This document shows, piece by piece, positions 338 to 20,793 of a stretch of 32,777 nt of DNA (position 1 is its first letter; the number at the start of each line of letters is the position of its first letter). Both the position numbers and the translations under genes were made by a program. The notes under the pieces are model-generated. The model had not been told where the DNA came from. It saw only the letters and a program-made list of their open reading frames with translations, and made no database searches. Where the stretch lies: positions 68,184-100,960 of IMG/VR virus record IMGVR_UViG_3300022562_000870; one strand, written 5' to 3'. The DNA comes from a virus (lineage: Duplodnaviria; Heunggongvirae; Uroviricota; Caudoviricetes).

Positions 338-411
338 GGGCTATTGGTGTAGTGGTAACATGGCTGGTTCCAACCCAGCAGACAGGGGTTCGATTCCTTT
401 ATGGCCTGCCA
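338..411 (+). tRNA. trnW: tRNA-Trp (CCA)
   Basis: Acceptor GGGCTAT/ATGGCCT, anticodon arm GCTGG-TTCCAAC-CCAGC, T-loop GTTCGATTC, G73, encoded CCA. Confidence 0.92.
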
Positions 412-427
412 AGTAAATAGTTTTAAT

Positions 428-503
428 GGCGGTGAATGCGAAAGGCTGAGCAGGTCGCTTCATAAGCGATTGGTTGTGGGTTCGAGTCCCACCGCCGCTA
501 CCA
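428..503 (+). tRNA. tRNA with CAU anticodon (probably elongator Met), atypical A8 and U10-A25
   Basis: Acceptor GGCGGTG/CGCCGCT, anticodon arm GTCGC-TTCATAA-GCGAT, T arm GTGGG-TTCGAGT-CCCAC, A73 CCA. Met versus Ile2 identity cannot be settled by eye. Confidence 0.85.
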
Positions 504-509
504 AATAAT

Positions 510-602
510 GCCTCTATAGTGTAATGGCAGCACCCGAAGCTTATACCTTCGTTAGCCCCAGATTAGGGCGTAGTCTAGGTTCGAATCCTAGTAGAGGCAC
601 CA
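510..602 (+). tRNA. 93-nt class-II-shaped tRNA with UAU (Ile) anticodon and long variable arm
   Basis: Acceptor GCCTCTA/TAGAGGC, D arm GTGT-AATGGCA-GCAC, anticodon arm CGAAG-CTTATAC-CTTCG (TAT at 542-544), 23-nt variable region with a GCCC/GGGC stem, T arm CTAGG-TTCGAAT-CCTAG, A73 CCA. Confidence 0.88.
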
Positions 603-2370: not shown

Positions 2371-2444
2371 GCGCCTCTAGCTCGAAGGTCGAGCGTGCGA
2401 CTCATAATCGCTTGGTGAGGGTTCGATTCCCTCGTGGCGCACCA
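2371..2444 (+). tRNA. trnI: tRNA-Ile2 (CAU, lysidine type)
   Basis: The anticodon-arm region GCGACTCATAATCGCTTGGT matches the enterobacterial tRNA-Ile2 signature; T arm GAGGG-TTCGATT-CCCTC; A73 CCA. Confidence 0.85.
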
Positions 2445-3309: not shown

Positions 3310-3385
3310 CGCGGGATATATCAGGGGCAGATTACTAGGCTCATAACCTATGTGGACGGTGGTTCGAATCCATCTCCCGCAACCA
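3310..3385 (+). tRNA. Initiator-like tRNA-fMet (CAU), divergent anticodon stem
   Basis: C1xA72 mismatch, CGCGGGA/TCCCGCA acceptor, A11-U24, anticodon arm CTAGG-CTCATAA-CCTAT, T-loop GTTCGAATC, ACCA end. Confidence 0.85.
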
Positions 3386-3405: not shown

Positions 3406-3481
3406 AGCGGGGTGGAGAAGTTGGAATCTCGTTAGCCTCATAAGCTAAAGATCGCCGGTTCGAATCCGGCCCCCGCAACCA
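3406..3481 (+). tRNA. Second initiator-like tRNA-fMet (CAU)
   Basis: A1xA72 mismatch, AGCGGGG/CCCCGCA acceptor, A11-U24, anticodon arm TTAGC-CTCATAA-GCTAA, T arm GCCGG-TTCGAAT-CCGGC, ACCA end. Confidence 0.88.
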
Positions 3482-19339: not shown

Positions 19340-19718
19340 CTGCTATTCTTCTAGCTAAATTTATTAAAACTAAAAGTTCCTCATATTCTTTGGGTCGATT
19401 TTCTTTTGTCATAGTGGCAACGCCACGCAAATAATTTGCGACGTGACTAGCCTCTAGACCTGTTCCCGTTAAAAGTAATTTCCAAGTATTATCAAGATAT
19501 TCTTTAAATGCTGGTAATATATGTTTACAATCATCGGGGCCTTCGATTTTATATGTTGGGGCATTGGGGTTTATTTTTTCAATGGCGCGTGTAGTTTTAC
19601 GAATGCGTGGGTTTTTCGTAGAATTTACTTTCTTCTTCGTAGGTTTCTTTTTTGAAAAAAGCGGAGAGCTTTCATCAAAAACTAAAAGGTCTTGATCTGT
19701 ATTTTTACTTTCCGGCAT
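19296..19718 (-). CDS. Hypothetical protein with basic N-terminus (140 aa)
   Basis: Co-oriented and overlapping both neighbours; Lys-rich N-terminus. Confidence 0.65.
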   Translation of the reverse strand: MPESKNTDQDLLVFDESSPLFSKKKPTKKKVNSTKNPRIRKTTRAIEKINPNAPTYKIEGPDDCKHILPAFKEYLDNTWKLLLTGTGLEASHVANYLRGVATMTKENRPKEYEELLVLINLARRIADERNRTTSQEEQDS

Positions 19719-20793
19719 TCCAAACTAAATCCTGAACATCCATTAACAATGCTGCTGCAAATTTTAAATCTGGTTTTTTTGGAAGTTTTGTTTTTTTATA
19801 CCATACAACACGAACTTCCTCATCCATCTTTGTAGCATAATCAACAATTTCATCATATGTCCATGCGCCGCCACGAATTTGAAGTAACTCAAGGGCATCC
19901 GGGCGCTTGACAACAATTTCTTCATCGCGAAGTGCTTCCACACCCATGCGCAATAATCTTACAAGATGCATAGCATGTTTTGTATCATAACCAAATTGTT
20001 CTTCAAGTTCGCTACGTACTTCATTTCGATTATTTTTCCATTCCCAATATCTTTCATGTTTTTCTTTAAATTCACGATAAATGTCTTTATTGAATTTAAT
20101 AACCATAACTGGGAGTGTGTCTTCAAATTCAGAGCGATCACCTTCATATGTGGTGTTCAATTTTCCAAATGTGTCAAATAGTTCTCTACCCTTTTCAGGA
20201 TATACACCATAGATGTTACCACCAAACGGCACCAAACGATGGTCTTCATTCCATTCATCAATATTCAATTTTAACATTTTTTCTTTGCCAAAGTATTGCA
20301 CCAAAGATACGTAATCCTTGGGCTTGGGTGCTTCTTTTGGTTGCGGGTTATTGATCCACTTATTATGACCTTTAATACGATGTAACTGTGACAACGCATA
20401 GCCAGAAGTAGTAAAGGCAATCTTAGAAGAAAGTAATTTATGTCGATGTTCGCGAAGCAAATCATATGCAGGCGTTCTGAATGTAATATCAGTATCATTA
20501 ACCCAAAGAGTTTCGATAATATTTGGGTTACAATCCAAACACAGTTTCATGAAATGTGCGAGTTCATACAGTTTAGTATCTTCTTCCGCAATGTCATCAC
20601 ATTCACGCACAGTAAAAAATGGTGTACGAACGTTTACAGGATCACCGCAGAAGATACCACGAAAATCTACATCTGAAGATGGTAAATTTGTTCCATACGA
20701 AATCGATCCTGCATAGTGTTTAACCAGCATGTTATCTTTCATAAGACTTTGGGCGTCTTTTGGTCGCAGTGTTTTAATTTGGTGCGTAAACAT
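19705..20793 (-). CDS. DNA-polymerase-beta-superfamily nucleotidyltransferase (RlaP/NrdC.11-like)
   Basis: 'AGSISYGTNLPSSDVDFRGIF' (GS...DxD), 'CNPNIIETLW', 'GYDTKHAMHLVRLL'. Confidence 0.88.
   Translation of the reverse strand: MFTHQIKTLRPKDAQSLMKDNMLVKHYAGSISYGTNLPSSDVDFRGIFCGDPVNVRTPFFTVRECDDIAEEDTKLYELAHFMKLCLDCNPNIIETLWVNDTDITFRTPAYDLLREHRHKLLSSKIAFTTSGYALSQLHRIKGHNKWINNPQPKEAPKPKDYVSLVQYFGKEKMLKLNIDEWNEDHRLVPFGGNIYGVYPEKGRELFDTFGKLNTTYEGDRSEFEDTLPVMVIKFNKDIYREFKEKHERYWEWKNNRNEVRSELEEQFGYDTKHAMHLVRLLRMGVEALRDEEIVVKRPDALELLQIRGGAWTYDEIVDYATKMDEEVRVVWYKKTKLPKKPDLKFAAALLMDVQDLVWNAGK

Follow-up and report, generated by a model that had tools for sequence, protein, structure and literature searches.

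AUA is the hardest sense codon for bacteria, and its reader is normally a tRNA whose CAU anticodon has been remade by TilS, a route that is needed because a plain UAU anticodon is poorly charged by isoleucyl-tRNA synthetase (IleRS) and is able to misread AUG. The subject of this analysis is a gene for a tRNA with a UAU anticodon and a fifth, base-paired arm, found at positions 510-602 of the window, which is the 32,777-nucleotide stretch at positions 68,184 to 100,960 of the tailed-phage record IMGVR_UViG_3300022562_000870. It is a real, conserved five-arm tRNA, and represents a variant form of tRNA-Ile(UAU). The conventional tRNA-Ile2(CAU), of which E. coli ileX is an example, reads AUA as isoleucine, the function also proposed here, but has a CAU anticodon that needs modification by TilS, and no extra arm. 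Closer in its decoding is the tRNA-Ile2 of Mycoplasma mobile, which has UAU with A37 and reads AUA as isoleucine with no lysidine (Taniguchi et al. 2013, PMC3575796). This tRNA nevertheless has the ordinary four arms and depends on an adapted ribosome and an adapted IleRS (Arg865) with a relative preference for UAU about 100-fold greater, the E. coli enzyme charging UAU tRNA-Ile poorly (PMC3575796). The window tRNA differs in having a fifth arm that displays GAU, and in its occurrence in phages whose hosts, as far as is known, have tilS-type systems.

A long extra arm is also combined with UAU in the allo-tRNA(UAU) of Acidobacteria, according to Mukai et al. (2017, PMC5389517), where 'five-stem-junction structures' are mentioned for abundant atypical allo-tRNA(UAU) thought to be probably non-translational. 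The features that define an allo-tRNA in that study are an acceptor/T branch of 8/4 or 9/3, a tetraloop on a long D-stem, an anticodon stem of 6 bp and a discriminator that is G73 or U73. In the window tRNA the branch is 7/5, the D-stem measures 4 bp and bears a 7-nt loop, the anticodon stem is of 5 bp and the discriminator is A73. The acidobacterial copies fetched in this work have the same C-CAGAUUA-G arm and A73 as the phage gene, and no mention of the GAU loop was found in the accessible part of the 2017 paper (PMC5389517). A targeted literature search found no published description of either the GAU loop or the phage 7/5 form, and IleRS papers of 2024 and 2026 still cite only M. mobile for bacterial UAU. 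The nematode nev-tRNA-Ile(UAU) (Hamashima et al., PMC3333845, PMC4300185) likewise join a variable arm (V-arm) to UAU, but these are eukaryotic class II tRNAs charged by LeuRS in vitro, whereas neither the body nor the arm of the window tRNA is of class II, and AUA aligns with isoleucine. Finally, the bacterial tRNAs for Leu, Ser and Tyr also have a base-paired arm between the anticodon and T arms, and those for Leu and Tyr share A73, but they differ from the window tRNA in its 4-bp D-stem, 7-nt D-loop, 7-nt V-loop and 5-nt 3' linker.

ARAGORN identified 510-602 as a tRNA-Ile(tat) of 93 nt, and the Rfam tRNA model RF00005 matched 510-599 with a score of 57.4 bits (E 4.6e-10; gathering score 29), the canonical T-loop and 7-nt anticodon loop being in keeping with membership of this family. 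RNAfold, applied to 510-602 alone, returned the same five-helix cloverleaf at -28.9 kcal/mol, with equally good folds in 5 of 200 shuffled sequences. The preliminary description of this locus had claimed a UAU cloverleaf with a long extra arm, which these three analyses bear out; the parts it listed, namely G1-C72, C2-G71 and C3-G70, A73, the 23-nt variable region (552-574) and the GCCC/GGGC stem, are accurate when read directly from the sequence. It made no mention, however, of the most telling feature, which is the GAU in the extra loop and the conservation of this arm together with the UAU anticodon.

That association is evident from the family to which the gene belongs. An anticodon-independent pattern, consisting of the V-loop motif and the T-loop, matched at least 120 viral contigs, and among the matches listed 105 of the 108 motif-bearing tRNAs found by ARAGORN had a UAU anticodon, the other three carrying the motif elsewhere by chance. 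The long form was found in none of the 41 Ile(GAU) and none of the 102 CAU tRNAs of those loci. The arm is shared by several different tRNA bodies, yet in this search it accompanies almost only UAU. A pattern with no constraint on the arm (UAU loop, 27-40 nt, T-loop, ACCA) identified 89 unique viral members, 84 of which have GAU in the extra loop and 74 a 3' linker of 5 nt; the exact C-CAGAUKA-G is present in just 50 of the 91 unique tRNAs matching this pattern. When bacterial members are included, a 7-nt loop centred on GAU is found in 102 of 104, and the loop consensus of the family is N-A-G-A-U-N-N.

The loop is fixed while its stem covaries. Among 96 distinct members that were aligned, 97.9% of the cells of the extra helix are paired and both sides change in three of the four pairs, the loop-closing C-G being invariant, and RNAalifold recovers the helix independently; hence it has been kept by compensatory changes far beyond chance. 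All seven pairs of the acceptor stem also covary, with G1-U72 in 64 of the 96, and A73 is present in 169 of 183 family members. A Levitt-compatible R15-Y48 pair is found in 118 of 127 members (93%; 101 A-U and 17 G-C), compared with 17% when the neighbouring nucleotide is taken instead. This pairing and the 5-nt linker together imply that the linker acts as a normal variable loop, and that the core of the molecule is canonical. The window tRNA has each of the hallmarks of this UAU/GAU family: the loop CAGAUUA, the linker GUAGU and the pair C556-G568.

The resemblance of the extra hairpin to an anticodon arm was studied by numbering it as one, using GAU as the anchor and a motif-unbiased set of members. 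With '34-36' being G-A-U in 102 of 104 members, position '32' is C or U, '38' is A in 82 and G in 17, and the '29-41' pair is C-G in 98 of 102, while the pairs flanking the latter vary freely. Elsewhere, C29-G41 is found in 68% of the real Ile(GAU) stems in these loci, as against 9% of all other tRNAs, 24% of CAU tRNAs and 28% of the UAU arms of the same molecules. The isoleucine identity elements listed for E. coli are C29-G41, the anticodon and A73 (PMC9976931). As judged from sequence, the hairpin copies those parts of the Ile(GAU) anticodon arm that are reportedly read by IleRS: G34, A35, U36 and C29-G41. The copy is not complete. Position '33' is A in 99 of 102, where real anticodon loops have U; and '37' is U in 82 and otherwise variable, where real loops have A. 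The arm is therefore without U33 and A37, both of which are nearly constant in real anticodon loops. A cross-loop A2-U6 pair, which would make GAU a triloop, was also considered and rejected: position 6 varies between U, G, C and A while A2 is fixed, and hence the two do not covary.

The use of AUA in this phage is heavy, accounting for 692 of 1853 isoleucine codons (37%), or 26.4 per thousand codons, in 111 long open reading frames (ORFs) of the contig. The meaning of the codon was studied in the window's two most conserved enzymes, NrdA and NrdB (the large and small subunits of ribonucleotide reductase), which were aligned with 73 and 64 cellular homologues at approximately 56-63% identity. 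At the 26 AUA positions the mean composition of the homologue columns is I 0.52, V 0.20 and L 0.13, closely comparable to the 59 AUU/AUC positions (I 0.55, V 0.15, L 0.15) and quite distinct from the 107 positions with leucine codons (L 0.65, I 0.09); the columns of serine and tyrosine codons are just as distinct from those of AUA. Columns with an isoleucine majority make up 14 of the 26 for AUA, which does not differ from the 34 of 59 for AUU/AUC (Fisher p 0.81) but greatly exceeds the 8 of 107 for leucine codons (Fisher p 4e-7). AUA is isoleucine in this phage; the test speaks to the meaning of the codon, and not to the identity of the tRNA that reads it or to rare mischarging. One 362-aa ORF (19705-20793, minus strand), with a weak Pfam match to RlaP, a family of RNA-repair nucleotidyltransferases, has no AUA codons where approximately 9-10 would be expected from the contig average, and the gp32-like ORF adjoining it has one.

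The gene is probably that of a functional tRNA which reads AUA as isoleucine in a phage with heavy use of this codon. The features that go with a TilS-independent tRNA-Ile(UAU), a UAU in a canonical loop with A37 and A73 at the discriminator, are all present, and the same anticodon arm, letter for letter, recurs in 14 ordinary class I phage genes for tRNA-Ile(UAU), 73-77 nt in length. Of the two options offered by the preliminary description, the first, a TilS-independent AUA decoder, is in keeping with the canonical loop, the tRNA array, the 37% share of AUA and the isoleucine composition of its columns. Expression of the gene, the charging of its product by IleRS and the role of the arm are inferred. 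The hairpin is inserted between the anticodon stem and the normal 5-nt variable loop of a canonical core. In the mechanism suggested here, because bacterial IleRS charges UAU poorly, the arm may compensate in cis by supplying the missing GAU-type signal; isoleucylation would then take place without TilS and without an adapted IleRS, and decoding would be left to the UAU arm. IleRS clamps the anticodon stem-loop, and in yeast an unmodified UAU transcript is 40-fold less active (PMC11685878). The mechanism as a whole, including the arm as an IleRS determinant, is plausible but falls somewhat short of probable. That the fifth arm is a non-decoding copy of the Ile(GAU) anticodon arm, read by the host IleRS instead of or alongside the true anticodon, is proposed only tentatively.

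A search for a partner protein found that the window's flanking ORFs recur in none of 259 loci, and that no protein family occurs in the vicinity of more than 13% of 213 distinct loci. As no protein family travels with the tRNA, and the hosts of its carriers span several phyla, the partner of the arm is probably a universal host factor. Both points favour compensation in cis by the arm, as does, more weakly, the lack of IleRS and TilS genes in the incomplete contig.

Several observations weigh against a role for the arm in charging by IleRS. Four-arm class I tRNA-Ile(UAU) are common in phages (14 of the 16 in the anticodon-arm search), which implies that the arm is not generally required; a BLAST search for the hosts of these ordinary phage tRNAs returned only Lak phages and one mislabelled match. 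IleRS, as a class I synthetase, approaches the tRNA with the variable region facing away, and contact of the arm with the anticodon-binding domains would therefore require an alternative docking or stacking. The body of the window tRNA is itself without the minor E. coli isoleucine determinants C4-G69, U12-A23 and C29-G41, and a probable lysidine-type tRNA-Ile2 is also encoded in the window, meaning that the UAU tRNA is not the sole possible reader of AUA. The family counts, those from the alignment of 96 distinct members used for covariation among them, take no account of shared ancestry. The arm lacks A37; among the strong determinants for bacterial IleRS is t6A37 (PMC9976931). Lastly, Mukai et al. 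report six allo-tRNA(UAU) variants as inactive in E. coli, where they were tested as CUA variants for the insertion of serine (PMC5389517).

The alternative that survives best accepts an AUA-reading tRNA-Ile but assigns the arm to something other than IleRS: a handle for a U34-modifying enzyme that prevents the misreading of AUG, an element in decoding fidelity or folding, or protection from, or a decoy for, a host nuclease or toxin directed against tRNA. A UAU tRNA has a problem of fidelity besides that of charging, and a partner that recognises sequence is suggested, though not named, by the fixed loop with its A at '33'. The absence of A37, and with it of the t6A37 valued by bacterial IleRS, also counts in favour of this alternative. 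The allo-tRNA(UAU) genes are furthermore often near toxin-antitoxin genes, according to Mukai et al. (PMC5389517). The elements that are conserved, however, G-A-U and C29-G41, are those tied to IleRS and to real Ile(GAU) stems, and no dedicated partner gene travels with the tRNA. No enzyme that modifies U34, and no nuclease, is known to us to read G-A-U together with C29-G41. The other extra-arm tRNAs of the contig carry short, unrelated hairpins, and protection as a general function would thus leave the association of UAU with GAU unexplained. A role of this kind is possible, if somewhat less likely than one in charging by IleRS.

A use outside translation, in which a tRNA-like RNA would serve in regulation, in connection with a toxin-antitoxin system or in a mobile element, is unlikely. 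It is the role suggested for most allo-tRNA(UAU) species by Mukai et al., in whose work the same six variants failed in suppression in E. coli, two of them being toxic, and where pseudogenes and toxin-antitoxin neighbours are reported (PMC5389517). That test replaced the UAU anticodon and assayed serine, however, and as described there it has no bearing on the acceptance of isoleucine. The acidobacterial copies of the arm lie in large arrays of irregular tRNAs, and the contig of the window also holds other irregular tRNAs. Against this, the features of a translating tRNA are all under selection in about 100-200 distinct members, which keep the covarying 7/5 acceptor/T branch, U33, UAU, A37, the T-loop, A73, CCA and the Levitt pair, and the gene is found in arrays of ordinary tRNAs in phages with heavy AUA use.

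The second option of the preliminary description, a Leu/Tyr-derived chimaera that could insert a residue other than isoleucine, was assessed by comparing 183 unique long tRNA(UAU) with the other tRNAs of the same fetched loci. The long tRNA(UAU) have a D-stem of 4 bp (127 of 183) or 3 bp (56), a D-loop of 6-8 nt (174), an extra-arm loop of 7 nt (152) and a 3' linker of 5-6 nt (166). All 122 Leu tRNAs have a 3-bp D-stem, and all but one of these a D-loop of 10-11 nt; Ser and Tyr tRNAs have D-stems of 3 or 4 bp, and across the three isotypes D-loops are mostly 9-11 nt, V-loops mostly 3-4 nt and 3' linkers 1-3 nt. The class I D-arm is instead common to the long UAU family, the ordinary Ile(GAU) and the short Ile(UAU) tRNAs. 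Hence, although the window tRNA has the helical variable region of at least 10 nt that marks class II, its D-arm, V-arm geometry and body relatedness are not those of that class. A nearest-neighbour isotype classifier, run with masked anticodons on bodies stripped of the arm, was right for 218 of 250 controls (87%) and spread the family bodies like the background, with Leu 26, Ser 14 and Tyr 8 of 210 (Leu 12% against 11%, Tyr 3.8% against 2.5%). Neither the window tRNA nor the family showed an affinity for any isotype, and this holds for Ile(GAU) too; being near background for Leu, Tyr, Ser and Ile, the body neither supports nor contradicts an isoleucine identity. On the D-arm, the extra-arm geometry, the body similarity and the composition of the AUA columns, a Leu/Tyr-derived chimaera was rejected as unsupported.

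The window tRNA has an A15-U48 pair, which is one of the tertiary elements of E. coli tRNA-Leu, while its A35 is incompatible with anticodon recognition by TyrRS. That the long arm should bring about charging by LeuRS, TyrRS or SerRS, with AUA (or AUG) partly read as an amino acid other than isoleucine, is very improbable: A73 and a long extra arm are present, and leucylation in vitro is known for the nematode tRNA-Ile(UAU) with a V-arm (PMC3333845, PMC4300185), but the AUA columns match isoleucine and not leucine, serine or tyrosine, D-arm and arm geometry are unlike those of the corresponding tRNAs and no affinity of body was found, A73 and C2-G71 are reported antideterminants for SerRS (PMC9976931), and with 692 AUA codons in 111 ORFs miscoding would affect the whole proteome. 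The insertion of a wrong amino acid by the window tRNA is thus not supported, a result of sequence analysis that does not extend to low-level mischarging or misreading of AUG.

The preliminary description had suggested a search of related phages for orthologues, and a wide family was indeed found. Among cultured phages, the gene is carried by the Synechococcus phages SynMITS9220M01 and S-SRM01, the Sinorhizobium phage Phosso, the Lactobacillus phages LpeD, Lpa804 and 3-521 and the Levilactobacillus phage ENFP1, the hosts of which belong to the Firmicutes, Cyanobacteria and Alphaproteobacteria. In the records of these phages it is either unannotated or labelled tRNA-Ile. Bacterial carriers comprise at least 120 genome contigs, mostly of Acidobacteriota and Rhodobacterales; those of Acidobacteriota often have arrays of 11-38 tRNAs per 8 kb with allo-tRNA-like bodies. 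A BLAST search of the UAU tRNA against plasmids gave no match. Some members depart from the usual body: one sub-family (e.g. L061:4203-4294 and L052:4469-4560) combines a UGGU tetraloop on a D-stem of 4 bp with a 6-bp-like anticodon stem, and acidobacterial copies (L358, L368) have the GAU arm on allo-tRNA-like long D-stems. A reverse design is found at L482:1306-1395 (IMGVR_UViG_3300003406_000002), a 90-nt tRNA in which the anticodon loop is a canonical GAU loop (CUGAUAA) and UAU lies in the loop (AUAUAA) of an additional 5-bp hairpin. As a family, this reciprocal arrangement of a GAU anticodon and a UAU extra loop was rejected, since a pattern scan found it in one contig only.

If the arm does act through IleRS, the five-arm UAU tRNA with its GAU arm would be a third solution to the problem of AUA, found across phages of several phyla and in bacterial arrays, in which the codon is read without TilS or an adapted IleRS by phages and mobile tRNA arrays in hosts of several phyla. 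The amino acid and the codon would each be set by a different arm of the same molecule, and the coupling of anticodon to identity would be circumvented by natural means. An identity element moved off the anticodon in nature would be of use in genetic-code engineering, as with orthogonal tRNAs charged independently of the anticodon, and the most abundant, and so far puzzling, group of allo-tRNAs would also be explained. As regards annotation, such genes are either missed in the genomes of cultured phages or bear a simple tRNA-Ile label.

The window makes up the final 32.8 kb of a viral contig of 100,960 bp, judged to be approximately 30% complete. Relatives reached through a neighbouring gene are up to 561 kb, and the virus is therefore a jumbo phage. 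In 19 related jumbo-phage loci, reached through a MazG-like gene, there is no tRNA array at the corresponding position, and consequently no orthologue was obtained from close relatives. The contig has 36 tRNAs according to ARAGORN and 40 Rfam hits. The UAU gene is the last in a tight Trp-CAU-UAU array whose spacers are 16 nt and 6 nt long, and an ORF with an AAGGAG site begins 17 nt downstream of it; a scan for promoters and terminators around the array, including between its tRNAs, found nothing beyond the expectation from shuffled sequences. Neither an IleRS-type enzyme nor TilS was found in the contig of about 101 kb, which is weak evidence of absence in that it represents only about 30% of the genome. 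The positions of the tRNA and its parts, and of the tRNAs around it, are given in Table 1.

Table 1. Parts of the five-arm tRNA gene and neighbouring tRNA genes, in window coordinates
Feature	Position	Strand	Basis
Whole tRNA(UAU) gene, 93 nt	510-602	+	ARAGORN, RF00005, minimum free energy fold
Acceptor stem, 5' strand; 7 bp with 592-598 (G1-C72, C2-G71, C3-G70)	510-516	+	Fold; all 7 pairs covary in the family
D-arm, class I type; 4-bp stem, 7-nt loop AAUGGCA	519-533	+	Comparison with class II tRNAs
Anticodon arm; 5-bp stem, loop CUUAUAC; UAU 542-544, U33 at 541, A37 at 545	535-551	+	
Extra arm; 5' linker UUA 552-554, stem GCCC/GGGC 555-558 / 566-569	552-569	+	Fold, family covariation
Extra-arm 7-nt loop CAGAUUA; GAU at 561-563	559-565	+	Loop statistics
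C556-G568; the '29-41' pair when the extra arm is numbered as an anticodon arm	556, 568	+	
3' linker, 5 nt, GUAGU; U574 is position 48, Levitt partner of A15 (524)	570-574	+	
T-arm; stem CUAGG/CCUAG, loop UUCGAAU	575-591	+	RF00005, minimum free energy fold
Discriminator A73; encoded CCA	599; 600-602	+	Sequence reading
Trp(CCA) tRNA, same array, upstream	338-411	+	ARAGORN
CAU tRNA, same array, upstream	428-503	+	ARAGORN
CAU tRNA, probable lysidine-type tRNA-Ile2	2371-2444	+	Alignment with annotated E. coli ileX

The last of these, 1.8 kb downstream of the UAU gene, has in common with E. coli ileX the D-stem and an uninterrupted 19-nt block covering most of the anticodon arm and the first part of the variable loop; C4-G69 and C5-G68 are present as well. 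The likeness to ileX comes from direct alignment, BLAST of this tRNA against E. coli having given no match. It is probably, to judge from these shared elements, a lysidine-type tRNA-Ile2 and thus a second reader of AUA, dependent on the TilS of the host. Two further, adjacent CAU tRNAs (3310-3385 and 3406-3481) have a mismatched 1-72 (C-A and A-A), reminiscent of bacterial initiator tRNA, and both are without the three G-C pairs of the initiator anticodon stem. Between 4500 and 5000, Rfam had no match, whether at E 0.01 or better or at the gathering score.

Other irregular tRNAs lie approximately 18-20 kb before the window, in the region G000:C1:47869-50730 of the same contig, where extra arms are found on Pro(UGG) of 89 nt, Gln(UUG) of 86 nt with G73, Glu(UUC) of 84 nt and Thr(GGU) of 81 nt; these hairpins are short and have no relation to the GAU arm. 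The same region includes a tRNA with a CUA anticodon, of the amber suppressor type (G000:C1:48294-48367). The 111 long ORFs end in TAA (75), TGA (22) or TAG (14), and as TAG closes 14 of them, there is no hint of amber recoding in those ORFs despite this tRNA. In other phage arrays (L032, L037, L039 and L049), long tRNA-His(GUG) of 88-90 nt and tRNA-Cys(GCA) of 92 nt were observed, of which the former may be the 8/4 tRNA-His described by Mukai et al.

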